In this document: in pieces, positions 1-14,374 of the stretch
How the letters are laid out: every line of letters starts with the position of its first letter
Position numbering within the stretch: the stretch's first letter is position 1
Origin: a virus
UHGV virus genome: UHGV-1270568
Strand: one strand, 5' to 3'
DNA: 19,450 bases
Program-made: the position numbers and the translations under genes
Notes under the pieces: model-generated
Databases searched by the model: none
What the model saw: the letters and a program-made list of their open reading frames with translations, nothing else
What the model was told of the DNA's origin: nothing

Positions 1-1187
1 GAGGGCCACGGAACAGGTACACCAACGGGCAGTGCAGAGCCTTCCCCCAAACCAAGGTAATCAAGAACTCCCTGAGTGCTGGTTTTACCAAGAATGGCAC
101 GTCCAACACTTGTCAACGCGGTTAACGCGGCACGATCTGCCCCTGTAAAATATGGGAGTTTATCTGCTGATGTAGCAAGCTCCGCCAGCGCCGTCAGGGT
201 GGCATCCTTCGGTTGCTTACCCGCAAGCGCGTTAGTCATGGTGGTCGCAAAATTCGGGTCATTGCCCAGCGCCGCAGCCAGTTCGTTCAGCGTGTTCAGT
301 GCATCAGGTGACGAATCTACAAGTGCGGCAATCGCGGCCATAACGAAAGCCGTGCTTGCGATCTGGGTACTATTAGCCCCCTGTGGCGCTGTTGGTGTTG
401 TTGGCGTTCCGGTCAGTGCCGGGCTGTTTAATGGTGCTTTCTTGTTCGTTTCATCCATTACCGCCTTAACAGCTTTTGGTGTCGCTGCCAGCGTTTCAGA
501 CGTGCTGTTCGTGGCGCTACTGAGTTGAACAATCCCTTTTTGTGTAGTGGTGGCGTTCTGGGCGGTATATTTCCCGTTAGCCAGGTCATATGCAGCCTTA
601 ACCGCTTTCGGTGTTGCGGCCAGTGTTTCTGATTCACTGTTAATTGCACTGCTTAACTGAGTAAAACCTTTTACGGTCAGCGAGGCGTCCGGGTGACGTC
701 GTGATTGTTCGTGCTCTGATATTTTATCATCCACATATTTGCGGGTTGCCAGAACCACAGACGGGTCGATTTTCAGCGTGATGGCTTCGGTGTTCGTGAC
801 AACCAGAATCATGCGGATAGTCTGGGTGCGTCCACTGCCTTCCTGCAACTGCGGTTTGTACGTTTCCGGGCAGTTTGCCACCGCAATGAGTGCACCTTCA
901 TCATCATAAAGACCAATCTCACGGATCCAGAATCCTCCCTCGTTTTCAGGGATGATTTGCTCCGCAATAATCTGGCTCTGATTGTTAGGGTCAACACTCA
1001 GAAGATTCAGCGGTGCAATGCGTTTCTGGTTAATCAGTTTTGTTTGTGCAGGGTCTGGTGTTGGTAACACACCATTTGCATCACCAACGGCCATTTGCGT
1101 CAGATTCAGTTTACTGCCGAGCATCGTCGCGTTAGCCAGTCGTGCCGCGCCCTGATTAGTCAGAATAGCGTAGTATTTCACTGTCAT
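1..1187 (-). CDS. H: Tail fibre protein, N-terminal part (P2 gpH-like); gene continues beyond the window start
   Basis: Absent from the ORF track because it runs off the window. ATG at 1187..1185 overlaps the stop of the upstream gene (ATGA). My translation reads MTVKYYAILTNQGAARLANATMLGSKLNLTQMAVGDANGVLPTPDP... and stays open to position 1. Contains two copies of the ...SETLAATPKAVKA... module typical of P2-type fibre N-termini. ORFs 76..528(+) and 458..649(-) are shadows of it. Confidence 0.8.
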   Translation of the reverse strand, partial: MTVKYYAILTNQGAARLANATMLGSKLNLTQMAVGDANGVLPTPDPAQTKLINQKRIAPLNLLSVDPNNQSQIIAEQIIPENEGGFWIREIGLYDDEGALIAVANCPETYKPQLQEGSGRTQTIRMILVVTNTEAITLKIDPSVVLATRKYVDDKISEHEQSRRHPDASLTVKGFTQLSSAINSESETLAATPKAVKAAYDLANGKYTAQNATTTQKGIVQLSSATNSTSETLAATPKAVKAVMDETNKKAPLNSPALTGTPTTPTAPQGANSTQIASTAFVMAAIAALVDSSPDALNTLNELAAALGNDPNFATTMTNALAGKQPKDATLTALAELATSADKLPYFTGADRAALTALTSVGRAILGKTSTQGVLDYLGLGEGSALPVGVPVPWP

Positions 1188-1792
1188 GCGTTTACTCTCA
1201 GATTATCAATTAAATGAATGGCCGGGGCAGGGAAATAGTCCCCTTCGACAATAATGGACTCCGGGGTGTAGGGATAAACCGTCAGGGCATCGCCGTGATA
1301 GCATCCCGTACCAACGAAAATCTTTCCGTTCACACTCAGGCTGATCGCCAGCCCCGTCAGATGGCGACTTACTGGTTTTGCATCCGCAATAAGGCGCTCA
1401 AGTTCCTGATGCATTTCATCGGTGATGCCCTGATCAAGTACTCCGACAACAATGCGAAATGTTCCCGGCTCCTCGTTGAGTTGCCACCACTCCTTTACTT
1501 CAATCAGGTAGCCGAGAGGCTCCACGGCTCTTCGCAGTGCGCTGATGGTCCCTTTGTGTCGGTGTATCAGCCATGCATCACGAATCACCTGTCGCTTTGT
1601 CTCTTCCGGCCAGTTGCGATCCCAGCGGTCAACGGAAAACGCCCAGGCGAGATAAGGCAGCAGATGCACCGGGCAGGTGTCCGGCGACCACAGCGTGTTG
1701 AGGTCTACCGGAATGTCTGTAATGCGTGTTCCGACGGCTTCGGCACAACGCATGAAATTGCTGGCTGATGGTGGTAACAACGAATTACTCAT
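1184..1792 (-). CDS. I: Baseplate/tail protein I (P2 gpI-like)
   Basis: Track ORF 1184..1825; likely true start is the internal ATG at 1792 (MSNSLLPPSASNF...) with GGTGGA upstream. Motifs LWSPDTCP, LLPYLAWAFSVDRWD and RLIADAKPVSRHL match the P2 tail protein I family as I recall it. Immediately upstream of H, as in P2. Confidence 0.75.
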   Translation of the reverse strand: MSNSLLPPSASNFMRCAEAVGTRITDIPVDLNTLWSPDTCPVHLLPYLAWAFSVDRWDRNWPEETKRQVIRDAWLIHRHKGTISALRRAVEPLGYLIEVKEWWQLNEEPGTFRIVVGVLDQGITDEMHQELERLIADAKPVSRHLTGLAISLSVNGKIFVGTGCYHGDALTVYPYTPESIIVEGDYFPAPAIHLIDNLRVNA

Positions 1793-1821
1793 TGCGTCCA
1801 CCTTCGCTGATGGTGAATGAC

Positions 1822-1944
1822 TCACAGCGCGCCGCCTGTATGTCGCTGATGGCCATATTCTGTGTGGGTTCGATTATCACCATCATCGGTATCGGTGATG
1901 TCGTCCTCTGCGGGTCCGGGGTTGGTTCTGGCAACCATACTCAT
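1822..1944 (-). CDS. Possible 40-aa ORF at the M/I junction (MSMVARTNPGPAEDDITDTDDGDNRTHTEYGHQRHTGGAL); may be a junction artefact
   Basis: ATG at 1944 with AGGAG 9 nt upstream; acidic, low complexity; in-frame TGA closes the frame about 12 codons upstream of the ATG, so it is not simply the tail of a longer gene. Confidence 0.2.
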   Translation of the reverse strand: MSMVARTNPGPAEDDITDTDDGDNRTHTEYGHQRHTGGAL

Positions 1945-1956
1945 GGGGTTCACTCC

Positions 1957-2029
1957 TGAAAAAATCGGGCGGTGGGTGCGCGGTGTAAACGGTCACGGAG
2001 TCAAACCGGAACACCGCGCACGCCGCCCG
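1957..2029 (-). terminator. Terminator-like long imperfect hairpin followed by T6 on the minus strand, just downstream of M
   Basis: Minus strand reads CGGGCGGCGTGCGCGGTG ... CCGCGCACCCACCGCCCG then ATTTTTTCAGG; arms about 17 bp with a 3-nt bulge, loop about 26 nt. Confidence 0.4.
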
Positions 2030-2045
2030 CTGACGGGGTCAGTCG

Positions 2046-2846
2046 TTAACCGCGCTTTGCCTTCTGCGTCGCGGTGGTTTTTCGTGTTGCAGGCTTCCGC
2101 GTTGTCTTTTTACTTTTGCTGCTTTCGTCCTGCGCCTGCGGTGTGCTGGCATCTTCTGGTGCGGCTGTGGAATCGGCTTTTTTCAGGGCGCGGGAAAGGG
2201 TTGCAATCTCGCGTTTCACACCTGCGTTCGGGTTCAGGTGCATTGCTTCGCGTAGCAGCTTCAGTGATGAGGCCATGCTGTCCGCATCGGTCAGGCCACG
2301 GCGGGCAAAGGCGCACGCTTTGCATAATTTGGCGCGCACTTCGTCCGGCATGTCCTGGTCGGTGACAATCTCCCAAAGTGTGTCCAGTGGTTCGATAAAG
2401 GCGGACAAATCCGCGTCGGCATCCGTCCCGGCCTGCGTCAGTACCGGATTACAGATTTCTTCGGTCAGTACCGTGGCAGCAGTACGGCCAAAGTTATCCG
2501 GCATGATGAGGTTGTGATGGACCACATACGCGCCGATACGCAGCGCAAGCGGAAGATCGCCACAGTCAATCGCCCACACCATCAGCGTGGCAATCACTTC
2601 ATCCTGCTGCCCGCCGTCAGCTTCCAGCGTTCCCTCAATCCAGCCGGAAAAATCCGGCAACAACTCTTTTTTGATGGCGGCTTTCGCGCTTCTGGCCTGT
2701 ACGCCCTTAAGCCGGGCCTGTGCCAGACGCAGACGATACAGCACCTCTTCATGCGCGGTACGCGCGGCGTGGTCCACGCCTTCATTCGCCCGGCCTGCGC
2801 GCTGTGCCATCACGTTCAGCCAGTGTTGCTGTGCAGGAGTAATCAT
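2046..2846 (-). CDS. M: Terminase small (endonuclease) subunit, P2 gpM-like
   Basis: 266 aa; GGAGAG RBS 5 nt upstream of ATG 2846; motif DMPDEVRAKL and a basic K/R/T-rich C-terminal tail resemble P2 gpM; position downstream of N. Confidence 0.8.
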   Translation of the reverse strand: MITPAQQHWLNVMAQRAGRANEGVDHAARTAHEEVLYRLRLAQARLKGVQARSAKAAIKKELLPDFSGWIEGTLEADGGQQDEVIATLMVWAIDCGDLPLALRIGAYVVHHNLIMPDNFGRTAATVLTEEICNPVLTQAGTDADADLSAFIEPLDTLWEIVTDQDMPDEVRAKLCKACAFARRGLTDADSMASSLKLLREAMHLNPNAGVKREIATLSRALKKADSTAAPEDASTPQAQDESSKSKKTTRKPATRKTTATQKAKRG

Positions 2847-2891
2847 TTGTTCTCTCCGTTACAGGCGGGCATGATGCCCGCCGTGAGTTGA

Positions 2892-3944
2892 TTAGCTGTC
2901 GGCGAACTTCAGGCCAGTGACCATCGCGCACTTGCCATAGTCTTCAACGACATAAGCGTCATTGATGGACTGGTAGGTGGCGATGCGGTTGTATTCCGGC
3001 TCGTCTTTCATCAGGCGACGCATTGAACCTTTCTGCCAGTAAATCGACAGGTTGTTGAACGAGGTGATCAGCATCGTTGCATCCGGGAAGAACGGCGCAA
3101 GGAACACGCCCAGCCCGCCAATGGTGCGCGATGACAGGATGAGCTGCCCGGCAAGTAATTCCGCATTGGGATTCTGGCCGCTGATGCTGTTCAGCACGGG
3201 CAGACGCAGCGAGTTAAACAGGTTGCGCCCCATAATCACCGCGAGGTCGTCAGCTTCCTTGTGCCATTCATCCAGCAGGGATGAGCGCGCATCCTGTACC
3301 AGAGCATCGGCATTCGCATACTTACCCGCGTGCGCCACAGTGTTGTCCATGTTGCGGGAGGTCAGCGTCACGTCATTCATTACGCGCTCGCTGGCATCGG
3401 TTCTGATGTGCTCCAGCCAGCCCACGTTAACGTCCTGAAGCAGCTTGTTGGTGTGAAAATCAGACTCGTAGGCGTGGGATGTGCCGTTAAAGCCAATCAT
3501 GATGCGATCAAGCGCTACCTGCCGGGCGATCTGTGTACTGATACGGGACTGAAAATCGCTGTGGGCCGCCCAGGTATCAAGCTGTGGGTACGAAATAAAG
3601 GTATCGTAGTTCACCTGTTCGCACTGGTACTGACGAGACTTCATATCGATCACGTTATTCGGGTTACGGCGTTTGATGCCGTCATAACTGCTATTCGTGC
3701 GCGCAATTGGCCCGGTGGTGTCCAGGAGGATTTTTTCGCCTTTCTGGTCGGTCACGCCGATCACGTTAATTCTTTTCGTAAATTCGGTACTTTCCTTTGA
3801 GGCGTTTTCAAAACGCTGCTGCACCGCGGGTTCCACGGTAAATCGCGATACCAGTGCAGATACCGGGATATTGTTAAGCGACGCCTGCTGCGCCATATAG
3901 CAACCCAGCTTGTTGCGGGTAATATCTGACATCACCAGATTCAT
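2892..3944 (-). CDS. N: Major capsid protein, P2 gpN-like
   Basis: 350 aa; motifs FTVEP, GFNG, DVNVGWL, LSIYWQ and YVVEDY correspond to P2 gpN; AAGGAG RBS upstream; lies between O and M. Confidence 0.9.
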   Translation of the reverse strand: MNLVMSDITRNKLGCYMAQQASLNNIPVSALVSRFTVEPAVQQRFENASKESTEFTKRINVIGVTDQKGEKILLDTTGPIARTNSSYDGIKRRNPNNVIDMKSRQYQCEQVNYDTFISYPQLDTWAAHSDFQSRISTQIARQVALDRIMIGFNGTSHAYESDFHTNKLLQDVNVGWLEHIRTDASERVMNDVTLTSRNMDNTVAHAGKYANADALVQDARSSLLDEWHKEADDLAVIMGRNLFNSLRLPVLNSISGQNPNAELLAGQLILSSRTIGGLGVFLAPFFPDATMLITSFNNLSIYWQKGSMRRLMKDEPEYNRIATYQSINDAYVVEDYGKCAMVTGLKFADS

Positions 3945-3967
3945 AAAAAATTTGCTCCTTTGTCTTA

Positions 3968-4804
3968 TCAGAAGTCAGCCAGCTGGTCGGAGGCTGCGCC
4001 CGTTGCGGTGAAGCGGTTCTGCGGATCGCCGTCCTGCGTGCGCAGTTTTTCCTTCAATGCTGTCAGCTCTGTGGTCAGTGACGTGATTTTCTGGCGGTCC
4101 TGCTGATGGCGGGTTTCCAGCACATTAAAACGGTCGATAATGTCGGCCTGTGACGTTGCAACGCCTTCCACCGCTTCCTGAATTCGGGAGAAACTGGCGT
4201 CATCCGCTTTGCGGCCACGACCAATAATCCCCATTACGCGGTTAAACCACTGGGTGCCTTCTTCCTGGCGTTGTTCTGCCATTTCGATGATTTCAGACTC
4301 GATGGCTTCGGAGATAAGCGGTGCTTCACCCTGGATACTGTTGAACGTCATCACCGCCTGACGTTGCTGTGCCGTGAATTTCAGGCGCTCAGTGCCCAGG
4401 CTTGCCGGGGTGTCGGTCATCGCCAGCCCGACCAGATAGGCGCGCCCGTTAACGGAGAACTGCGGGTGCAGTTCGATACTGGAATAGATTTTCTTGCCGT
4501 CAGCGACAAGCTGCTTCATGCGCTCGGTCGGTTCGATTTCTGCATACAGCGCAGTACGTCCGGCCAGCGGGCCTTCCGTAATATCTTCCGTACTCAGCGC
4601 GGTGACATCGCCCATTGCGGAAAATTCGCTTGACGGGCATGGCGAGAGATAGTGCTCAACGTTCACGCGGGCAGCGTAAACATCCGGGTTGAAGTTCTCG
4701 GCGGCTTCACGCAGATGTACCTGGCTGATTTCGCGGCCATCAACAGTTGATCCGGAGACAGCCACGCGAAACTTTTTGCGGGATGTCTTTTTTTCATTAG
4801 CCAT
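3968..4804 (-). CDS. O: Capsid scaffolding protein, P2 gpO-like
   Basis: Track ORF 3968..4837; preferred start is ATG 4804 (MANEKKTSRKKFRVAVSGSTVDGREIS...) with GAGGGG RBS. KKFRVAV...DGR..IS and YLVGLAMTDTPASLGTE match gpO. Confidence 0.85.
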   Translation of the reverse strand: MANEKKTSRKKFRVAVSGSTVDGREISQVHLREAAENFNPDVYAARVNVEHYLSPCPSSEFSAMGDVTALSTEDITEGPLAGRTALYAEIEPTERMKQLVADGKKIYSSIELHPQFSVNGRAYLVGLAMTDTPASLGTERLKFTAQQRQAVMTFNSIQGEAPLISEAIESEIIEMAEQRQEEGTQWFNRVMGIIGRGRKADDASFSRIQEAVEGVATSQADIIDRFNVLETRHQQDRQKITSLTTELTALKEKLRTQDGDPQNRFTATGAASDQLADF

Positions 4805-4958
4805 AGTTTTTGCCCCTCTGACTGGTTCTTCAGTCATGATGGCAAAGCGTAACAGGCTGATACAAAGGGCTTTTGTTGTAAGAAAACGGCCAGAACAGGG
4901 GGTTAAGGAGAACGGTTTCGCGCGCGGGTAATCTTCCTGTAATTACTCAGGGGGAGCA
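4805..4958. promoter_or_regulatory. Divergent late promoter region between O (minus) and P (plus)
   Basis: 154-bp non-coding spacer between divergent structural operons, as in the P2 PO/PP region. Contains the near-palindrome ACAAAGGGCTTTTGT and TGT...ACA elements, but I cannot place a canonical Ogr-type TGT-N12-ACA site. Confidence 0.4.
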
Positions 4959-6710
4959 ATGATTCAGGACGCTTTTGTGCGCCAGCGTGCGCGGCAACTT
5001 TACTGGCAGGGTTATCCGCCCGCAGAAATATCACGTCTGATGGGAATAAACCCGAACACGATTTATGCGTGGAAAAAACGCGACCAGTGGGATGAAACGC
5101 CACCCGTGCAGCGTGTCACGCAGTCCATCGATGCGCGCCTCATCCAGCTTACTGAAAAACAGAATAAAACAGGCGGTGACTTTAAGGAAATAGACCTGCT
5201 GACCCGGCAGCTTAAAAAAATGCATGATGGCCAGCCGGATGCGACGGCCACAGGAAAGAAAGGTCGGGCGAAAAAACTCAAAAATCATTTCACGCCGGAA
5301 CAGATTGCCGCACTGCGGGAAAAAATCATCAGCAGGCTGGAGTGGCATCAGCGGGGCTGGTTTGACTCCCTGACCCTTTGCAGGGAAGCCGGGATACGTA
5401 ACAGGATGATCCTGAAATCCCGACAGATTGGCGCGACCTGGTATTTTGCACAGGAAGCACTGCTGATGGCGCTGCGTGACGATGTGGCGCAACCTTACCA
5501 GCGTAACCAGATTTTTTTGTCTGCGTCGCGTCGTCAGGCGTTCCAGTTTAAAAGCATTATTCAGAAGGCCGCGGCTGAAGTTGATGTGGAGCTGAAAGGG
5601 GGCGATAAAATCATCCTCTCCAACGGCGCAGAGCTGCATTTTCTCGGCACTTCTGCTGCGTCGGCGCAGTCCTATACGGGCAATTTTTATTTTGATGAAT
5701 TTTTCTGGGTCAGTCGCTTTGCTGAACTGCGCAAGGTGGCTGGCGCTATGGCAACCCTCAGCGGATTGCGGCGCACCTACTTCTCCACGCCATCCACCGA
5801 AACGCACGAAGCATACGCCTACTGGAACGGCGACCGCTGGAACGAGAAAAAGGCCACGCATAAACGCCAGCGTTTTTCTGTGGACTGGAAAACGCTGCAT
5901 AACGGGCTTATCTGCCCTGACCGGACGTGGCGGCAAATTGTCACGCTGGAAGATGTGGTTAATCACGGCTGGAAACACACCGATATCGACGAAATTCGTG
6001 ATGAAAACACCGAAGACGAGTTCCTCAATCTCTATATGTGTGAGTTTGTCCGCGAAGGGGAATCGGCATTTAACCTGAATATCCTGATTGGCTGCGGTGT
6101 TGACGGATACGACGACTGGAAAGACTGGAAACCTTTTGCTCCCCGCCCGATGGGGAATCGTCCGGTATGGATTGGGTATGACGCAAACGGCAGCAGTGGC
6201 AACGGCGACAGCGGCGCTGTATCCGTGGTGGTTCCTCCGGCTGTTCCTGGTGGCCGTTTTCGAACGGTGGAGACGCGACGCGTTCAGGGGCTGGAGTTTG
6301 AAGAACAGGCCAGAGTCATTGAAGAGTTCACGTGTCGCTACAACGTGGAACACATCGGCATTGATGTGACGGGCGGGAACGGGGAGGCTGTTTATCAGAT
6401 AGTGAAACGGTTTTTCCCTGCCGCTATTCCGTACACCTTCACGCTGTCATCAAAACGGTCGCTGGTACTGAAAATGCTGCAAATAATGCGTGCCGGGCGG
6501 TGGGAATACGATCGCGCCGAACGCGAGCTGGTCGCGGCCTTTAACGCCGTGCGTAAGGTGAAAACACCGGGCGGCTTTATCACTTACGAAACGGACCGTG
6601 CGAGGGGGATCAGCCACGGCGACCTTGCGTGGGCAACCATGCTTGCTGTCATTAACGAACCGATTGGCGGCGAAGGAGAAAACGAGCGTTTCACGGTTAT
6701 GGAGTTCTGA
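4959..6710 (+). CDS. P: Terminase large (ATPase) subunit, P2 gpP-like
   Basis: 583 aa; GGGGAG RBS; N-terminal RQLYWQGY...ISRLMGINPNTIYAWKKRDQWDE resembles the gpP N-terminus; stop overlaps the Q start (TGATG). Confidence 0.9.
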   Translation: MIQDAFVRQRARQLYWQGYPPAEISRLMGINPNTIYAWKKRDQWDETPPVQRVTQSIDARLIQLTEKQNKTGGDFKEIDLLTRQLKKMHDGQPDATATGKKGRAKKLKNHFTPEQIAALREKIISRLEWHQRGWFDSLTLCREAGIRNRMILKSRQIGATWYFAQEALLMALRDDVAQPYQRNQIFLSASRRQAFQFKSIIQKAAAEVDVELKGGDKIILSNGAELHFLGTSAASAQSYTGNFYFDEFFWVSRFAELRKVAGAMATLSGLRRTYFSTPSTETHEAYAYWNGDRWNEKKATHKRQRFSVDWKTLHNGLICPDRTWRQIVTLEDVVNHGWKHTDIDEIRDENTEDEFLNLYMCEFVREGESAFNLNILIGCGVDGYDDWKDWKPFAPRPMGNRPVWIGYDANGSSGNGDSGAVSVVVPPAVPGGRFRTVETRRVQGLEFEEQARVIEEFTCRYNVEHIGIDVTGGNGEAVYQIVKRFFPAAIPYTFTLSSKRSLVLKMLQIMRAGRWEYDRAERELVAAFNAVRKVKTPGGFITYETDRARGISHGDLAWATMLAVINEPIGGEGENERFTVMEF

Positions 6711-7756
6711 TGAGCAGAAAAAATAAAAAAGTGCGCATGAGTTCACGCATTGATCTCGCTGATGCGCTCAGGAAAGAATCATCGCTCAGTGCATTCACAT
6801 TTGATGGTCCTTATCGCCTGACCGGGCATGACCTGCTGGACAATATGTACTGTGCTGATAACGGGCGGTGGTATGAAACCCCGGTGGACTGGTACGGTCT
6901 GGCAAGAGCTGCCCGGCAAACGTCCTGGCATCAGTCTGCGCTTTACTTTAAGCGCAATGTATTACTCGGTTGCTACATCCCGCACCCGTTGCTTTCCCGG
7001 CAGGATTTCTCGGCGCTGGCGCTGGACTGGTTTGTGTTCGGTAACGCATTCCTTGAGCTTCGAAGCAATATGCTCGGCGAACCGCTTAAATTACGGCACG
7101 CCCTGGCGAAATACATGCGACGCGGAAGCGATCTTGAATCATGGTGGTATGTGCAGGATGGCAAGGACGCGTTTCAGTTTCGCCCTGGCAAAGTGTGCCA
7201 CCTGATGAATCCTGACATTAACCAGGAAATCTACGGCATGCCGGAATATCTCGGCGCATTACTCTCGGCCAGCCTGTCTCATTCGGCGGACATGTTCAGA
7301 AAACTGTATTACGACAATGGATCCCACGCCGGGTGCATCATCTACATCGGTGCAGCGCAGGTAAACCGCGAAAGCATGGACTCCCTGAAAGAAACGCTAC
7401 AGGGGGCACGTGGTGGTGGTGCGTTTAAAAACGTGCTCATTCATGCGCCTAACGGGGGCAAAGAGGGGGTGCAAATTTTGCCGTTCCAGCAGATCACCGC
7501 AAAGGATGAGTTCATGAATGTTAAGGCGGCATCCCGTGATGATGTGCTGGCTGCGCACCGCGTTCCGCCGCAACTGATGGGGGCGATGCCGGGCGAAAAA
7601 AGTGCGTTTGGTGATGTGGAGAAGGCCGCGCGGGTTTACGCAATTAACGAGCTGATGCCCGTCATGGAGGCCATGAAGCACATCAATGACTGGCTTGGCG
7701 AAGAGGTGATCCGCTTTAACCCTTACGCACTGTTAGACACCCTGCCCACATCCTGA
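6710..7756 (+). CDS. Q: Portal (capsid vertex) protein, P2 gpQ-like
   Basis: 348 aa; translationally coupled to P; same size and position as P2 gpQ, last gene before the cos region. Confidence 0.85.
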   Translation: MSRKNKKVRMSSRIDLADALRKESSLSAFTFDGPYRLTGHDLLDNMYCADNGRWYETPVDWYGLARAARQTSWHQSALYFKRNVLLGCYIPHPLLSRQDFSALALDWFVFGNAFLELRSNMLGEPLKLRHALAKYMRRGSDLESWWYVQDGKDAFQFRPGKVCHLMNPDINQEIYGMPEYLGALLSASLSHSADMFRKLYYDNGSHAGCIIYIGAAQVNRESMDSLKETLQGARGGGAFKNVLIHAPNGGKEGVQILPFQQITAKDEFMNVKAASRDDVLAAHRVPPQLMGAMPGEKSAFGDVEKAARVYAINELMPVMEAMKHINDWLGEEVIRFNPYALLDTLPTS

Positions 7757-7782
7757 CGCGCTTCGCTTGTCTGCTGCTTCGC

Positions 7783-7807
7783 CGGGGCATAAAAAATTTA
7801 TGCCCCG
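7783..7807. other. Perfect 11-bp stem, 3-nt loop hairpin (CGGGGCATAAA aaa TTTATGCCCCG) 27 bp after the Q stop
   Basis: Read directly from the sequence; no U-tract on either strand, so it may be a Rho-independent-like structure without a tail or a packaging recognition element. Confidence 0.5.
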
Positions 7808-7843
7808 ACTCTCCAGCTCCTGTATCAGTCAGATAATTTCACG

Positions 7844-7863
7844 ATGCTTTCCTGCTGATTGCC
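7844..7863. other. Candidate cos cohesive-end site
   Basis: ATGCTTTCCTGCTGATTGCC. The first 8-9 nt match the complement of the P2/186 cohesive-end sequence as I remember it (GTGCTTTCCCCGCCTCGCC), and the distance from the Q stop (about 90 bp) matches P2 geometry. The rest diverges. Confidence 0.3.
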
Positions 7864-8085
7864 ATCATCGACAGTCAGACTCTTACACAATCCCACCGCG
7901 TTGACTGCATGTTCTCGCCGCCTCAGTGCGATTTTGACGGCCTTATCTTCCACTCCATCAAATCAAAAGCCCTCACGTCGTTTTCACGCTCAGCGTGAGA
8001 AATACAGCCATTCTGTTGTGTCGCTGCGACATCGTTCAGGGGATGCTATTTACCCCCTGAAACGCGGGCTGTTCCCCCGTCACCT

Positions 8086-8110
8086 GCGCGCAGAAAAAGC
8101 GCGTTTTTTT
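8086..8110 (+). terminator. Plus-strand Rho-independent terminator candidate
   Basis: Short GC stem (CGCGC / GCGCG, loop AGAAAAA) followed by TTTTTTT. Confidence 0.4.
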
Positions 8111-8180
8111 GTGCACGCACGGATCCTTGACGGATCCAGCCGCCATGCGGGCCGGAAGGGTAAAAAGTCGTTCAAAAAAA

Positions 8181-8208
8181 TTGTGCAAATTTGTGCACTT
8201 TTGTGCAA
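8181..8208. repeat. Three direct repeats TTGTGCA(A/C) at exact 10-bp spacing (8181, 8191, 8201); a fourth copy at 8109..8116
   Basis: Read directly; helical-phase periodicity suggests a protein-binding array in the cos-proximal region. Confidence 0.6.
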
Positions 8209-8233
8209 ACAAAAAGCGCCCCTGAGGCGCTTT
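8201..8233 (-). terminator. Minus-strand Rho-independent terminator closing the A / cargo operon
   Basis: 8-bp stem AAAGCGCC / GGCGCTTT with loop CCTGA at 8213..8233; on the minus strand it is followed by TTTTGTTTG. Confidence 0.55.
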
Positions 8234-8267
8234 AGTGTTTTATAGGTTGTGTATATTTGCTGGGTCC

Positions 8268-8531
8268 TTATCCTGCTGTGCTTTCAACTGATGAGGGGAA
8301 CAAAATCTTTTCATCAAACCCTGCATTCATATCATGGACAGCAACACACCAATCCATTGACGAACGATTATCAAGAGCCTCCATGATTTCATCCATGCGG
8401 CGTAGGTCATACAGGTAAATGCTTTTATCGCCAATGGTGTAAAAACCAATTTTTTTCGGTGATGGACAGCGATCAAGAACGTCCTGTAATTCGTTCAACC
8501 ATGCCCGTTCTTTTTTTGTCAAAGTTGCCAT
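8268..8531 (-). CDS. Hypothetical 87-aa protein, third gene of the cargo cassette
   Basis: MATLTKKERAWLNELQDVLDRCPSPKKIGFYTIGDK...; AAGGAGAG RBS lies inside the 17-bp linker repeat; single-nucleotide gap to the upstream stop. No family recognised. Confidence 0.6.
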   Translation of the reverse strand: MATLTKKERAWLNELQDVLDRCPSPKKIGFYTIGDKSIYLYDLRRMDEIMEALDNRSSMDWCVAVHDMNAGFDEKILFPSSVESTAG

Positions 8532-8532
8532 A

Positions 8533-9024
8533 TCACTCTCCTTTGATGCGAATACCAGTGGTACTCATTATCCTGATTTCCCAGAGCACACGAGGAACAC
8601 CACCGTTTCCGACTGGATCGCGTTTACTCCGCAGGGCGACGCTTGATTCCGCCCAGCTTTTTCTTGGAGGAAGCGCTTTCACACGAACAAAACCAGCTGC
8701 GCGAAGAGATGCTCCTGATTCATCTGCCCGGGTGTACGTAATACAACGTTGATAACCCATAGCTTTTGCTGCCCGCCAGACAGCACCATAAAGCGCGCTG
8801 TTAGCGTTGCGTTCTCCTGTGGTACATGTGCGATTTACTTCAAGCGTTAATCCATCATCCAAATGTCGTGCAACAGGTCGACCGGCTGTCGCCACACCTA
8901 TCAATTCTCCGGCATCATTTCTCAGACCAATGCTGAATTTATGCCCCACCGGGGGTTTATTGTGTCGGTGATGTCTGGATATAAACGCCTTCGCAACACG
9001 AAGAGTAACCGGTGAAATTTGCAT
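8533..9024 (-). CDS. Hypothetical 163-aa protein, possibly GNAT-like fold; second gene of the cargo cassette
   Basis: Track ORF 8533..9063; preferred start is ATG 9024 (MQISPVTLRV...) with AAGGAGAG RBS. The segment ...NANSALYGAVWRAAKAMGY... and the C-terminal ...SGASLRAAGFVRV... loosely resemble GNAT motifs; this assignment is weak. Ends ...IRIKGE encoded by the linker repeat. Confidence 0.55.
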   Translation of the reverse strand: MQISPVTLRVAKAFISRHHRHNKPPVGHKFSIGLRNDAGELIGVATAGRPVARHLDDGLTLEVNRTCTTGERNANSALYGAVWRAAKAMGYQRCITYTRADESGASLRAAGFVRVKALPPRKSWAESSVALRSKRDPVGNGGVPRVLWEIRIMSTTGIRIKGE

Positions 9025-9026
9025 TC

Positions 9027-9602
9027 TCACTCTCCTTTGATGCCAATGTTTACAGACTGGCAAGCCTCTTTGAGCACCCAGTCAACAGCGTCTTTCCATG
9101 CTCCGGTTTCGACTGGCGGATTCTCACGCTTTACCTGTTCATAGAAACGCACCGCTCTAACCAGTCCATCTGACGGTTTTGCCTGTAGTGCAGCCTGAGC
9201 TATGCGGTATGCCTGGAGCATACGGGCGTCGTTGGCTTTTTTGCGGTTGATGTTGGCTATGTCCGGCTGTGCGTTTGTGTCGAAATACTCGCTCAGTGGC
9301 AGGGTGACAACCACATCCACCTCCTGTGGCGTGATGCCTGATTTGACCAGCGCGTGATGAATGGCAATGACATTCACATCGCTGTACTGGTATTGCGTGT
9401 CAGTCGTCTGGACAAAGCGATCGCTGACCGGATCAAAACCATAGCGCACGCCATCAAGCATGTAGTTCGCGGGCTGCGTGCCACCGAACGGCGCAGACCA
9501 TTCCGACTTGAAGCTGTTCGGGCTGATGGCGTTGCGGCGTTCGCCGTTCTCAGTCCATGCCAGCTTGGTGTTGGTGGAGCCGTCATCGATACAAATTTTC
9601 AT
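9027..9602 (-). CDS. Chimeric protein: N-terminal 120-odd aa ParM/StbA-like (actin-fold ATPase N-terminus) fused to an unrelated 68-aa C-terminus
   Basis: MKICIDDGSTNTKLAW...ISPNSFK.EW...YSDVNV.A.HHAL..SG....EVD.V.T.PL......N.QP...NI.RKKAN tracks the N-terminus of plasmid R1 ParM as I remember it (phosphate-1 motif DDGSTN), then diverges. No ParM C-terminal half in any frame. AAGGAA RBS. Ends ...NIGIKGE from the linker repeat. Confidence 0.6.
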   Translation of the reverse strand: MKICIDDGSTNTKLAWTENGERRNAISPNSFKSEWSAPFGGTQPANYMLDGVRYGFDPVSDRFVQTTDTQYQYSDVNVIAIHHALVKSGITPQEVDVVVTLPLSEYFDTNAQPDIANINRKKANDARMLQAYRIAQAALQAKPSDGLVRAVRFYEQVKRENPPVETGAWKDAVDWVLKEACQSVNIGIKGE

Positions 9603-9636
9603 GTCGCTTTTCCTTATGTTGATTAATTAATCGTTT

Positions 9637-9656
9637 ACGGGATTCTGAAATCCCGT
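9637..9656. repeat. Palindrome ACGGGAT-N6-ATCCCGT, copy 1, between the A stop and the first cargo gene
   Basis: ACGGGATTCTGAAATCCCGT followed on the plus strand by TTTTGCC. Confidence 0.6.
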
Positions 9657-9678
9657 TTTTGCCTGTTTTATGCGCGCT

Positions 9679-12501
9679 TCATATATCGCGGCGCGTTTTT
9701 TGCTCATTTACGGGATTTGTGAATCCCGTTTCTGTCTGTTTTTTGTTTCCACTGGTCAGGCCACCCCGCAGCAGGTCTGCTTTGCGGCGGGCGCGTTCAG
9801 TGGTTTCACTGATTCTCTGTGCGTGCTCTGCGTCGCGGATGGCGCGCAGCATGTCAGAAAGCACGGTAACGGGTGTTTTCATGGTGTTCTGGTCTTGCTG
9901 AAGTGTGGATGCCAGGCGTGCGGCGGCTTCGGGGTCTGATGCCCTCAGCTGTTCCAGATAGCTGGCGACCGGGTTATGGCGGATCTCCGTACTGCTTACG
10001 CCGTGGTTACGGCTCAGGCGCTGCCAGAGCTGCGTGATCCGGCTGTCCGGTCGGGTATCCGGTTTGCGTACAATTTCAAATCCCTGCGGTGCAATGATGC
10101 TGCCGTCAACGTACAGACTGCCGCCCCGTAACAGGTGCTGCATCTGCTGTTCACCGATATGCAGGCCGAGAGATTCGGCAGATTCCCGCCATTCTTTAGC
10201 GAGTAATTCGTGGTTATCAGGCAAAGGCCGCTGCTGTTTGCGGCTCTGTGTCCAGCTCTGCATTTCATCACTGCTGTTTTTTGCCTGTTTGTCACGAAGC
10301 GAACGCATCAGCGCCCGGCGTTCGTGCCGTTTCAGTGAGCGCATCCATTCGTTCACGTCAACGCCGTCAGGAAGCTGCGGCCACGGTGCTGGCCGTTCTT
10401 CCGGCTGTTCTGTCCCGTTGTTGTCCGTTTCCTGTACACGGGGACAGTTATTGCCACGAGTCCAAGGGGCGGCAGGGCCGCCCTGAAGGTCAAAACCATT
10501 TTCGCGGGCGCTGTCTTCCGTTTCCGGTTTACGTCTTACCAGTTTCCAGTTATCCGGATGCGTGCACACACGGGAGGATTCCCCGATGAGTGGTGACCAG
10601 ATCCCGTAAATCTGTACGCTCTGTTCGCCGTAATCATTCAGCTCATCTGCGAGGTCGTAGGCGGTGCGAATCAGGTAGTCTTTGCGTGGAACAAGTACGC
10701 CGCCCTGTTTTTCAATGTAGGTGGCAAAACACCCGGCATCGGCGGCAGCGAGTACCGCATCCATTGCGTCATCTTTCAGTCGTTGCGGGCCTTCCGGGTT
10801 GCGTGCCATCTGGCTGGCAAGGCGGCGCAGTTCACGCCACACCTGACGGGAGGGGATGCCAAAGAACTGGAACTGGCGGACCCGATGAAGGCGCGCCCAG
10901 CCGATGGCGCGCTCCACACTCTCGGCCATTGATTTTCCGGTTTCGTGGTCAACGCGTGGCTTGCCCGTTTTCGGGTCGATGCCATCCACGGCGCGGCTGT
11001 CCAGGTTCTTTCCGATGTAGGTCGCGATATAGCTGGTTGGTGTGCCTTTTGAGCCGTCGACATACTCCGCCTTAAAGCGCGGAGTAATATCATTGCCCAG
11101 CTCGTGGCGGTCTTCCTGAATGGCAATATCGCGGGTGATGGCCACGATGCTGTCGATTTCTTCCGGATGAGCAAAGACCATCATATGCCAGTGCACGGTG
11201 CCGTCATGGTGAGGCTCCACCGTGCGGATGCCATACCAGCGAAGACCGTCGCGGTTCAGTTTTTTGCGGACCGCCGCAAAAAACGTGTTAACCAGGTAAT
11301 CGCTGGAGTCGCGCATGGTGGCCCCGTTCCATTTGGGATTCGGATGACCGTTCTCTGTTGTGGCGTGGTATTTTGACGGGCAGGTGACAGTCAGAAACAC
11401 CGCTTTGTCGCCACGGGCTTCGGCCAGAAGTTCCAGCCCCTTCATGGTGGCCATCATTTCTGCCTTACGGTGAACCGGGTTACTTACTCCCGCGTAATAC
11501 ACTGTCTCGAGATCAATCGTGAACCCGTCTTCGTTTTCCAGCATGAAACTTTTCAGGAAATCGCGTGTTTTCTCGCGCTGTGCGCGAAACTCGCTTAACG
11601 CGTCCTGGCTCAGATAGGGTGATGTTTTTCTGGAAACCAGACAGGCGGCGCGGAGTTGTTCTTCTCTCCACTCGCAACGTAACAGCCACAGTTTGCGTTT
11701 CCACCATTCCGCACAGGTCAGGCGAAGGACTGCGCCCGGCAGCAGCTCCGTGTCCGGTTCGTTCCTCCGGTCTTTATCTGTTGTCAGTGCGTCATAATGT
11801 GGAGGCATGATGTGCAGGTGTAACGCCATGCGGGCCAGCATCTGATACGCCTTCAGCGTTACATCCATGGTCAGCTCGCCATCTCTGGCACCAAAGCCAT
11901 CACAGAGTTTTTCGAAGGTGCTGCTGAACATCGCCGCCGTCATGGTGGCCAGCGACTGTATCTGGTGTTTGTTGAGCTGCGGCAGGTAAAGCAAATCGTC
12001 CAGGCGTTCGCGTCCGGCAAGGGAGCGATAACCCGGTGTCAGCCAGTGTCCGTCAGTGCGATCCAGACGTTCGAATATTTTGCGCAGGGTTCCGCGTGCA
12101 TAGCGTTCCGCCTGCCAGCTCTTTTTGCCTTTCCGGCGATCGGCTTCCTGTTTTTTGCGCAGGAAGGAGAGGTGGCGAATAAGCGGATCGCGCAGATAGG
12201 ACGGCAGCAGGCGCAGCGAGGCCATGGCTTCATCCACCGCGCCACGTGCCTGTTTTCTGGCTTCTCTGGCCAGTGTGATGGTTTTGTCCTGTTTTTCCTG
12301 TGCGTCCAGGCTTTTATTAATCAGGTTGCCCAGCGGCGTGGCGGAGAACGCCGCATCAGCCATTTCCTGGCGGCGCTCGTTCTCTGCCCGGTAGGCATCC
12401 AGCCAGGAGGAAAGCTCGGATTCAGGAGCGGGGATTCCCGTTCCTTCACGACCCACTGCGTGGCGCGGTTGTTGCCAGTCCCTGATGTACTCTGCCGTCA
12501 T
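9679..12501 (-). CDS. A: Rolling-circle replication initiation endonuclease, P2 gpA-like
   Basis: 940 aa; HUH-type motif TVHWHMMVFA (about residue 437) and paired-tyrosine motif TSYIATYIGK (Y491/Y495), matching the P2 gpA active site arrangement as I recall it; sits downstream of the early operon. Confidence 0.85.
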   Translation of the reverse strand: MTAEYIRDWQQPRHAVGREGTGIPAPESELSSWLDAYRAENERRQEMADAAFSATPLGNLINKSLDAQEKQDKTITLAREARKQARGAVDEAMASLRLLPSYLRDPLIRHLSFLRKKQEADRRKGKKSWQAERYARGTLRKIFERLDRTDGHWLTPGYRSLAGRERLDDLLYLPQLNKHQIQSLATMTAAMFSSTFEKLCDGFGARDGELTMDVTLKAYQMLARMALHLHIMPPHYDALTTDKDRRNEPDTELLPGAVLRLTCAEWWKRKLWLLRCEWREEQLRAACLVSRKTSPYLSQDALSEFRAQREKTRDFLKSFMLENEDGFTIDLETVYYAGVSNPVHRKAEMMATMKGLELLAEARGDKAVFLTVTCPSKYHATTENGHPNPKWNGATMRDSSDYLVNTFFAAVRKKLNRDGLRWYGIRTVEPHHDGTVHWHMMVFAHPEEIDSIVAITRDIAIQEDRHELGNDITPRFKAEYVDGSKGTPTSYIATYIGKNLDSRAVDGIDPKTGKPRVDHETGKSMAESVERAIGWARLHRVRQFQFFGIPSRQVWRELRRLASQMARNPEGPQRLKDDAMDAVLAAADAGCFATYIEKQGGVLVPRKDYLIRTAYDLADELNDYGEQSVQIYGIWSPLIGESSRVCTHPDNWKLVRRKPETEDSARENGFDLQGGPAAPWTRGNNCPRVQETDNNGTEQPEERPAPWPQLPDGVDVNEWMRSLKRHERRALMRSLRDKQAKNSSDEMQSWTQSRKQQRPLPDNHELLAKEWRESAESLGLHIGEQQMQHLLRGGSLYVDGSIIAPQGFEIVRKPDTRPDSRITQLWQRLSRNHGVSSTEIRHNPVASYLEQLRASDPEAAARLASTLQQDQNTMKTPVTVLSDMLRAIRDAEHAQRISETTERARRKADLLRGGLTSGNKKQTETGFTNPVNEQKTRRDI
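9710..9729. repeat. Palindrome ACGGGAT-N6-ATCCCGT, copy 2, inside the last about 15 codons of A
   Basis: ACGGGATTTGTGAATCCCGT, followed on the plus strand by a T-rich run; a third GC hairpin plus T6 lies between the two copies (9672..9701). Confidence 0.6.
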
Positions 12502-13176: not shown

Positions 13177-13233
13177 GATGTGGCCTCTCTGTTAGTTAGT
13201 TTTGAAAACTCACCATCCAGAGGTTCCAAGCTC

Positions 13234-13314
13234 GGGGTGGTGAGACGTACAGGGTTGGAACTACCGGCTAACAGAGGACCCGGCCCAGCTGATGCTGGCC
13301 CTGTACGCCCCACC
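13234..13314. other. Highly structured non-coding element in the leader of the 76-aa / 121-aa / A unit
   Basis: Plus-strand CGTACAGGG (13246..13254) pairs with CCCTGTACG (13299..13307), extended by GGTGG/CCACC, enclosing an inner hairpin CCAGC-TGAT-GCTGG (13285..13298). Confidence 0.4.
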
Positions 13315-13353
13315 ATAATTCTGACGCGAAAAAGACGTGGCGATACGGCACGC

Positions 13354-13376
13354 ACAAAAAAACCGCTGGCGCGGTT
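13354..13376 (-). terminator. Minus-strand Rho-independent terminator
   Basis: Minus strand AACCGC-GCCA-GCGGTT followed by TTTTTTTG. Confidence 0.55.
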
Positions 13377-13512
13377 GTGCGCTCTGTTAGTCTGCGGGGT
13401 TCCAATCCCGGCACCCGTTTTATGAGGTGCAGCGGAAATGTAACCTGACTGATTGCGGCATGGCAAGCGGTTTTTTTGTGAGAACGGCATACTAAAAAAT
13501 CCTGATACTGCT

Positions 13513-13543: not shown

Positions 13544-14374
13544 TTACTTCACCGGAACAAACGGAACAGCGGTGTTACTGGTCATGTATTGCGGTAGCGT
13601 GCCGTTCCATTTGTTAATCGCTTCCAGCTCCATAACGCCGGGATTCTGGCGCAGAGCTTCACCGCGTAAACGAATGGCGTCGGCTTCAGCCTGGGCTTTT
13701 GTGCGAATGGCATCGGCTTGTCCGGCAGCTTCTGCGCGCAGCATGTTGGCTTCAGCTTCGCGTTGCTTGACTTCCTGTTCACGTTGCAGGGTTTTCTGGT
13801 TTGCCGTGACTTTGGCATTAATGCTGTCGATAACGGTTGGCGGGTATTCCGGCTTACCCACATAAGAGAGGCTCATTACCTGAATGCCGATAGGTGTCAT
13901 TTCTGCCTGAATGTCTTTAAGTGCTGAATCCAGCAGTTCAGACTTGCCACCGTCGATAAATTTATCGGTGGTCATTTTGCTGGCCAGTCGGTTGAGTGCG
14001 TCGGCGATCTTCTGGCGCAGGTCAGTGTCGGTAATGTCATCCACGCCTTTGCGGTAGGTCTGAAACACTGTAGTAACTTTGGATGGATCAACCTTGTAGG
14101 CCACACCGATGTGATAGCCGATGGTTGTGCCGTCACTCATCTGAAAGCTGAACGGCTCATCGTAGGTCTTCATTTGTTTGAAGGTCGGGAAGATGTAAAC
14201 CTCGGTATTCCAGCCAGTCCAGTAGCGGCCAACGCCAACCACTTCGCCAACGCCTTTGTCGTCGCCCAGCTTGTTGACTTTGATGCCCACATTACCTGGC
14301 TCAACGCGATCGCAGCCAACCAGCAGGATGGCGGCAAAAAGCGGGAGAATCTGAAAGAGTTTGAATTTCTTCAT
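13544..14374 (-). CDS. SPFH / band-7 (prohibitin, HflC-like) domain lipoprotein
   Basis: 276 aa; N-terminal signal peptide with lipobox LLVGC; C-terminal Ala/Glu/Arg/Gln-rich coiled coil (QREQEVKQREAEANMLRAEAAGQADAIR...) typical of SPFH proteins; start overlaps upstream stop (ATGA). Confidence 0.7.
   Translation of the reverse strand: MKKFKLFQILPLFAAILLVGCDRVEPGNVGIKVNKLGDDKGVGEVVGVGRYWTGWNTEVYIFPTFKQMKTYDEPFSFQMSDGTTIGYHIGVAYKVDPSKVTTVFQTYRKGVDDITDTDLRQKIADALNRLASKMTTDKFIDGGKSELLDSALKDIQAEMTPIGIQVMSLSYVGKPEYPPTVIDSINAKVTANQKTLQREQEVKQREAEANMLRAEAAGQADAIRTKAQAEADAIRLRGEALRQNPGVMELEAINKWNGTLPQYMTSNTAVPFVPVK

Follow-up and report, generated by a model that had tools for sequence, protein, structure and literature searches.

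The virus genome UHGV-1270568, a stretch of 19,450 nucleotides that we analysed as a whole and call the window, matches part of the Escherichia coli PO06021 chromosome at 100% identity and represents a P88-like (Xuanwuvirus, Peduoviridae, P2-family) E. coli prophage, integrated next to btuC. Positions 1–7756 hold the lysis, head and terminase genes, and beyond them three minus-strand open reading frames (ORFs) are situated between the gene for the portal protein gpQ and that for the replication endonuclease gpA, an interval defined by Rousset et al. 2022 as a P2-family hotspot (PMC9122126). An earlier, sequence-only reading had proposed these ORFs as a three-gene defence, abortive-infection or toxin-antitoxin cassette. 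Here we describe what the three ORFs are: the remnant of a destroyed partition module (ORF1), an intact protein of the XF1762 family with a predicted fold like that of the DNA-modifying enzyme Mom of phage Mu (ORF2), and a small acidic protein, p87 (ORF3).

6710–7756, plus strand: portal protein gpQ (PF04860, 8e-18, and RefSeq annotation), flank of the hotspot
8213–8233, minus strand: intrinsic terminator-like hairpin at the end of the minus-strand array, AAAGCGCCTCAGGGGCGCTTT followed by a TTGTTTG tail, with 9 pairs, 5 of them G-C
8268–8531, minus strand: ORF3, 87-residue acidic orphan (p87), matching PHROG 1714 (phrog_1714)
8533–9024, minus strand: ORF2, intact XF1762-family protein of 163 residues from its ATG, Mom-related GNAT by NCBIfam, PHROG and AlphaFold2 model
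9027–9602, minus strand: ORF1, in-frame parM'-'orf104 fusion of 191 residues, matching StbA_N and phrog_26213/phrog_660, pseudogenes in RefSeq
9679–12501, minus strand: gpA replication endonuclease (PF05840, 3e-131), flank of the hotspot

The layout described by the sequence-only reading holds in its coordinates. The three ORFs have the lengths and strand that it gave, they are tightly coupled, with stop-start gaps of 2 nt between ORF1 and ORF2 (GAG TGA GA ATG) and 1 nt between ORF2 and ORF3 (GAG TGA T ATG), and the hairpin that bounds them lies about 35 nt past the last stop codon. Their placement between gpA and cos is borne out for gpA and the portal gene; the presumed position of cos is a matter of synteny only, the P2/P4 19-nt cos sequence not having been found with up to 3 mismatches allowed. 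That this is a variable-cargo position is likewise confirmed, both by the published definition of the hotspot (PMC9122126) and by variation among close relatives. Phage P88 shares the flanks at 96–99% DNA identity and, in its accessory region, the same parM 5' end and orf104 3' end; it differs from the window in lacking 8208–9030, which comprise XF1762, p87 and the terminator, with homology resuming at a gene-boundary linker (blastn), while the window has lost 1407 bp.

The loss of 1407 bp accounts for ORF1. Residues 1–130 of ORF1 match StbA_N (PF06406) at positions 1–130 of 158 (4.5e-64) and thus correspond to the ParM/StbA N-domain of the type II ParMRC system of plasmid R1, whereas residues 138–191 match phrog_26213 and phrog_660, which are unrelated to the ParM half. 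The ParM C-terminal domain PF21523, which stands beside StbA_N in an intact relative, is missing, leaving ORF1 with one of the two domains of the ParM/StbA actin fold, and the adjacent ParR-type adaptor gene (Plasmid_stab_B) is gone with the deletion. In relatives at 99% identity (e.g. ST131 isolate 86), gpA and the XF1762 gene are separated by four genes, namely those for parM (319 aa), the Plasmid_stab_B adaptor (103 aa), a 110-aa protein with a ClpX C4 zinc finger and a product of 104 aa; these relatives resemble ParMRC of plasmid R1 in having a full ParM together with the adaptor. Blastn against the ST131 relative L002 aligned window 7001–9234 with its positions 2302–4535 and window 9230–10000 with 5938–6708, which places the junction as follows.

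9230–9234: deletion junction, 1407 bp (469 codons) lost, with short CGTT microhomology (blastn against ST131 relative L002)

Lost in the deletion were the 3' part of parM, parR, the ClpX-zinc-finger gene and the 5' end of the 104-aa gene, and the fusion product consists of ParM residues 1–130 joined in frame to the C-terminal ~60 residues encoded by the 104-aa gene. Both halves of ORF1 are annotated as pseudogene fragments in the RefSeq record that is 100% identical to the window. When complete E. coli genomes were searched with a 136-bp probe, the junction was contiguous in only 2 of 5426, and one or other half was present in 861. The 191-aa ORF is a deletion remnant of a partition module, and the deletion is a recent event that destroyed this module. 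Because both the C-domain of the actin fold and the adaptor gene have been deleted, the partition system is unable to work, and ORF1 itself is probably non-functional. The original content of the hotspot was parM-parR, the ClpX-zinc-finger gene, the 104-aa gene, the XF1762-family gene and the 87-aa gene.

Such a module is the commonest cargo of the hotspot. The most abundant system there (system no. 1), composed of Plasmid_stab_B and StbA, occupies 4592 of 18,150 loci ("around a fourth") and was read by Rousset et al. 2022 as plasmid partitioning, not defence (PMC9122126). Table S5A of the same work holds the intact arrangement, including WP_001167293 and WP_000224220, the XF1762 and p87 accessions of the ST131 relative are listed there, and the sequences of the window's genes are not among the tested systems in its tables (PMC9122126). 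The sequence-only reading had named genes common at this position in relatives as a finding that would speak against it, and this is what we see for the first gene. The intact parM-parR-…-XF1762-p87 locus is also found on NZ_CP183151.1 (7933–11390), a non-chromosomal record of 129,347 bp from E. coli strain 455, and plasmids hold 210 of the matching places in the genome collection. These copies are consistent with ParMR enabling such phages to be maintained as plasmids.

Unlike ORF1, both ORF2 and ORF3 are genuine and conserved, as 5184 clusters are homologous to ORF2 and 132 to ORF3. Their close packing can be traced to a repeated sequence at the gene boundaries.

9012–9047: gene-boundary linker copy 1, …ATCAAAGGAGAGTGA-N1-2-ATG, 36-nt direct repeat, 83% identical to 8518–8553
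8518–8553: gene-boundary linker copy 2, 36-nt direct repeat at the XF1762/p87 junction

The linker spans the last codons and the stop of the upstream gene along with the Shine-Dalgarno sequence and start of the next one (…IKGE and stop, over AAAGGAGAGTGA-ATG), and the break in homology with P88 falls at copy 1. We counted co-occurrence in IMG/VR at 80 p87-anchored and 80 XF1762-anchored viral loci (L007–L166). XF1762 is present at 16 of the p87 loci and p87 at 38 of the XF1762 loci, with the two genes directly adjacent in 36 of the latter. At least 12 different genes follow XF1762, all with the shared linker, and at least 8 different genes precede p87, again with the linker; Ea22-like genes usually come next after p87. 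Both genes are also carried by an inducible relative, Escherichia phage PhiR44_2 (PV340564). The XF1762 and p87 genes also occur at ~96% DNA identity in lambdoid and P22-like phages. In Kapi1, a different gene, of 63 aa, stands after the XF1762 gene, and p87 comes after an Ead/Ea22-like gene in VSe13 and vB_EcoS-689R5. In lambdoid and P22-like phages such as these, the Ea22/ead early-left regions share with the window the XF1762/p87 genes, the linker and the mosaic Ead/Ea22-like neighbours; these regions differ in that they belong to the int-xis/recombination region, whereas in the window the modules sit downstream of gpA in a P2-family genome. Judged by this distribution, XF1762 and p87 are separate mosaic modules that are also at home in Ea22/ead early-left regions, and the linker looks like a recombination joint of the Ea22-region mosaic. 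Since the linker is common to many unrelated gene pairs and the P88 break falls on it, tight coupling is a generic property of the mosaic gene pool.

ORF2, accession WP_001167295, is a clear member of the XF1762 family, its residues 3–136 matching positions 2–130 of the 143 in NCBIfam NF045478 at 202.9 bits, against a cutoff of 50 (1.9e-60), and it also matches PHROG 1384, 'Mom-like DNA modification protein' (2e-41). The AlphaFold2 model has a GNAT fold, with a predicted local distance difference test score (pLDDT) of 85, and its top Foldseek match in the PDB is Mu Mom (8bv8_B, E 1.1e-8, query TM-score (TMq) 0.69), followed by generic acetyltransferases. Direct sequence comparison does not reach this far, as a PDB sequence search gave only a chance match (E 2.6) and BLASTP of XF1762 against Mu Mom was insignificant (E 0.24), so that profiles were needed. 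With these, the Pfam Mom profile matched 40 of 51 diverse XF1762 relatives at E<0.01, some of them above the gathering threshold, and hhalign aligned a diverse XF1762 profile with a Mom-family profile at E 1e-4 over 119 columns, pairing XF1762 H19, R65, N73, S76 and G104 with Mom H58, R111, N121, S124 and G156. All five XF1762 residues are invariant or nearly so across the family, and the counterparts of Mom H58, R111 and S124, namely H19, R65 and S76, are conserved to at least 90%, up to invariance, in a diverse alignment of 51 members (A3).

XF1762 and Mu Mom therefore have in common the GNAT fold and the motifs around H58, E-x-N-R111 and N121-x-x-S124, and both are basic (pI 11.05 for ORF2, which is very basic) and phage-encoded. 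They differ in length, with 163 aa for XF1762 against 231–241 aa for Mom, and XF1762 lacks a com-like upstream regulator. Whereas mom is a late gene of phage Mu, XF1762 appears to lie in an early operon. Mom moves glycine from Gly-tRNAGly onto the N6 of adenine in double-stranded DNA, giving 6-NcmdA, as was shown in 2026 (PMC13219725), and to date DNA modification has been demonstrated for no other GNAT (PMC13219725). Its activity requires R111, S124, R151, D149 and a helix-turn-helix-like (HTH-like) insertion (175–209), the deletion of which abolishes activity, and H58 and Y159 are important (PMC13219725).

The XF1762 family is also large and widely spread, comprising 3855 clusters at 50% identity (E<=1e-3). 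A scan of the genome collection with alignment A1, which yielded 21 loci, placed homologues at 54–70% identity in contigs of Mycobacterium, Streptomyces, Clostridia, Acidobacteria and Dehalococcoidia. To judge from these matches, the conservation across phyla is unusual for a phage accessory gene, and its level suggests a universal substrate. In some members the domain appears to be fused to C5 or D12 N6-adenine DNA methyltransferases, to DUF6884, to a recombinase or to a polyvalent-protein module, and several distant loci place it directly after DNA methyltransferase genes.

L179 (Mycobacterium kyorinense), 1103–3944: C5 methyltransferase, D12 methyltransferase, XF1762, in this order
L178, 992–3836: distant XF1762 locus after DNA methyltransferase
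L180, 1564–3836: distant XF1762 locus after DNA methyltransferase

At a Clostridiales locus, an SNF2+N6_N4 methyltransferase lies directly upstream of XF1762, and at a Clostridia locus a C5 methyltransferase does, so that adjacency and fusion together cover DNA methyltransferases of three classes. Proteins P0301 and P0263 are XF1762 homologue entries listed with methyltransferase fusion or adjacency.

ORF3, by comparison, is an orphan. No Pfam, NCBIfam or PADLOC profile matched p87, and a PDB sequence search returned nothing. Its AlphaFold model is confident (pLDDT 93.6) and found no significant structural neighbour in the PDB, and p87 may, on this model, represent a new small fold. The source-named clusters among its homologues are all from Enterobacterales, and the motif RCPSPKKIGFYTIGD…LYDLRR is highly conserved. 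The protein is acidic (pI 4.8) and its gene has a GC content of 0.42, against ~0.55 in the flanks. We infer from the loci counted above that p87 is not a partner of XF1762; our guess is that it acts as an independent small acidic early protein that inhibits or modulates a host factor.

Gene order bears on when these genes are expressed. A co-oriented minus-strand array runs from ~17005 through gpA and the three ORFs to the hairpin at 8233–8213, and its start lies opposite a helix-turn-helix repressor-like gene and the integrase. A crude promoter scan of the minus strand from 7700 to 9800 detected no σ70-like promoter. The int-proximal Ea22 region of lambdoid phages is transcribed early in lytic growth. 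Because XF1762 and p87 show no promoter of their own, continue the gpA array and recur in lambdoid Ea22 regions, we infer that they are expressed in the lytic phase, in which case they would be transcribed as the tail of an early lytic operon that extends from a repressor-divergent promoter region near 17.0 kb to the terminator at 8233–8213. The P2 genes old and tin, likewise located between gpA and cos/gpQ, are active in the lysogen. The window's genes differ from them in showing no sequence or domain similarity to either, no PADLOC match, co-orientation with gpA and no promoter of their own that could be found. Lytic-phase expression would argue against the lysogen-expressed exclusion genes expected of prophage defence cargo.

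As a whole explanation of the locus, we consider it probable, with some reserve, that a decayed ParM remnant lies beside two independent morons, of which XF1762 is a Mom-like counter-defence modifier. XF1762 would acylate or aminoacylate nucleic acid, with phage DNA as its most probable substrate, and the modification would shield the replicating genome from host nucleases. A nucleic-acid modifier is indicated by the Mom fold match, the shared catalytic residues, the basic pI and the methyltransferase fusions and adjacency. Several observations weigh against this explanation. ORF2 itself scores 22.0 bits with Pfam Mom (PF25680), below the gathering score of 27.1, and covers only positions 3–118 of 202 in that profile; the hhalign probability for XF1762 and Mom is only 57%. 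In the same alignment, which makes these pairings provisional, Mom D149 falls on a gap, R151 on a variable column and Y159 on a conserved Leu, and in place of the HTH-like insertion XF1762 has a 26-residue loop (119–144, pLDDT 58–66) with one 4-residue helix. The methyltransferase link is seen at ~5–6 of 20 distant loci and in a small number of fusions, which may be gene-calling read-throughs. For the timing of expression, gene order and a crude promoter scan are the sole guides, and the host-factor role of p87 is a guess. Finally, our literature search found no paper on XF1762 and nothing relevant under 'Mom-like', and thus no biochemical or phenotypic data on any XF1762-family protein. With the essential R151, D149 and insertion lacking conserved counterparts, DNA momylation proper by XF1762 is unlikely, and because D149, R151, Y159 and the HTH-like insertion are missing, its chemistry or its donor probably differs from that of Mom.

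The same differences can be turned towards another target. XF1762 could be a Mom-fold GNAT that acts on RNA, tRNA, a host protein or a small molecule as an early host-takeover function, since it conserves neither D149, R151 and Y159 of Mom nor the essential insertion, for which a DNA-binding role has been proposed; GNAT substrates are moreover very diverse, the authors of the Mom study hold that structure cannot predict the substrate (PMC13219725), and a universal RNA target, for instance tRNA, could account for the 54–70% identity across phyla as well. We regard this as rather unlikely, as the repeated fusion and adjacency to three classes of DNA methyltransferases points to DNA, and the closest fold is that of the one GNAT known to modify it. 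A proposal that joins ORF2 and ORF3 makes them a two-gene unit, either a GNAT toxin (acylating charged tRNA in the manner of TacT/AtaT) with p87 as antitoxin, or an enzyme with p87 as specificity or regulatory subunit. The 1-nt gap, the adjacency in 36 of 80 XF1762-anchored loci, the pairing of a small acidic with a very basic protein and published structural overlays that put Mom near the tRNA-acetylating toxin TacT (PMC13219725) all speak for such a unit. The counts speak against it, in that p87 is missing from more than half of the XF1762 loci and XF1762 from 64 of 80 p87 loci, and outside Enterobacterales XF1762 occurs without p87, with 3855 representative clusters of the one against 132 of the other; the close spacing, in turn, is explained by a linker shared by many gene pairs. 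In known toxin-antitoxin pairs of a GNAT and a ribbon-helix-helix (RHH) protein, the antitoxin is encoded ahead of the toxin and folds as a DNA-binding protein, whereas p87 is the downstream member here and gave no fold match. On the co-occurrence counts we rejected the toxin-antitoxin or paired-system idea, and a two-gene unit of either kind seems to us quite improbable.

There remains the proposal with which the locus was first flagged, in which the prophage would express all three ORFs, as cargo of the hotspot, and these together would make up a single module of a kind not yet described, for anti-phage defence, abortive infection or toxin-antitoxin action. In its favour are the location in a published P2 hotspot, in which about 1/3 of the systems cloned by Rousset et al. 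2022 conferred defence (PMC9122126), the tight coupling of the ORFs with a terminator at their end, and the fact that XF1762 and p87 have no assigned function. These points are outweighed, as one of the three supposed components is a deletion chimera that is contiguous in 2 genomes and annotated as pseudogenes, the other two assort independently, with no obligatory co-occurrence, the genes appear to lie last in an early lytic operon, show no promoter of their own and are also found in lambdoid phages, within Ea22 regions that act early in lytic growth, and the Mom-like fold points to counter-defence. A search of PADLOC-DB v2 gave 0 matches at E<=1 for all three proteins. The statement that none of the three resembles old, tin or a defence family thus stands in that respect; it needs amending in that the proteins do fall into known families (StbA_N/ParM, XF1762, PHROG 1384 and PHROG 1714). 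We hold the single-module proposal to be largely refuted and very improbable. What was observed at the locus is therefore confirmed in its coordinates and not in its three-gene premise, and its interpretation is partly supported.

The surroundings of the ORFs contain further features. Upstream of ORF1, two repeats lie on either side of the gpA stop codon, with parM' downstream of them.

9631–9672 and 9704–9745: two 42-nt direct repeats (family D1), candidate parC-like ParR sites, with the 20-bp palindrome ACGGGATTnnnnAATCCCGT in each

The repeats are 81% identical and spaced by 73 nt, and the palindrome has 2 matches against 0.07 expected by chance. They could serve the phage partition module, as a centromere or operator bound by ParR, or could act as an attenuator downstream of gpA; compared with ParMRC of plasmid R1, they are a candidate centromere only. 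On the other side of the ORFs, a portal-proximal non-coding stretch of ~450 bp (7757–8212), the presumed cos region, contains several hairpins, including those at 8086–8104 and 8183–8198. An Rfam scan gave only a sub-threshold gyrA-RNA match at 7762–7815 (22 bits, against a gathering score of 45), which we treated as a chance match on the hairpin after the portal gene. A second decay lesion is present in the early operon, in the form of a truncated ash-family pseudogene, which adjoins an intact gene for a 276-aa protein with an SPFH (stomatin/prohibitin-like) domain, odd cargo for a P2-type early region; the coordinates of the pseudogene and its neighbour are 13227–13490 and 13544–14374.

As a defence lead, the locus is weak, consisting of the debris of the commonest non-defence cargo and of shuffled accessory genes already catalogued there, and it offers a caution for hotspot mining, in that packed ORFs with a terminator can be a deletion scar together with independent morons on generic linkers. 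XF1762, by contrast, is a lead worth following, as an abundant, cross-phylum enzyme with no published function, half of the Mom catalytic centre and links to methyltransferases. We put forward, tentatively and as a possibility well short of even, that XF1762 is a large branch of the Mom superfamily without published characterisation, which installs an undescribed, possibly aminoacyl-tRNA-dependent nucleic-acid modification as a broad counter-defence, often alongside phage DNA methyltransferases, and that p87 is a new-fold early protein with a host target of its own. Work on XF1762 could reveal a second chemistry in the Mom enzyme class.

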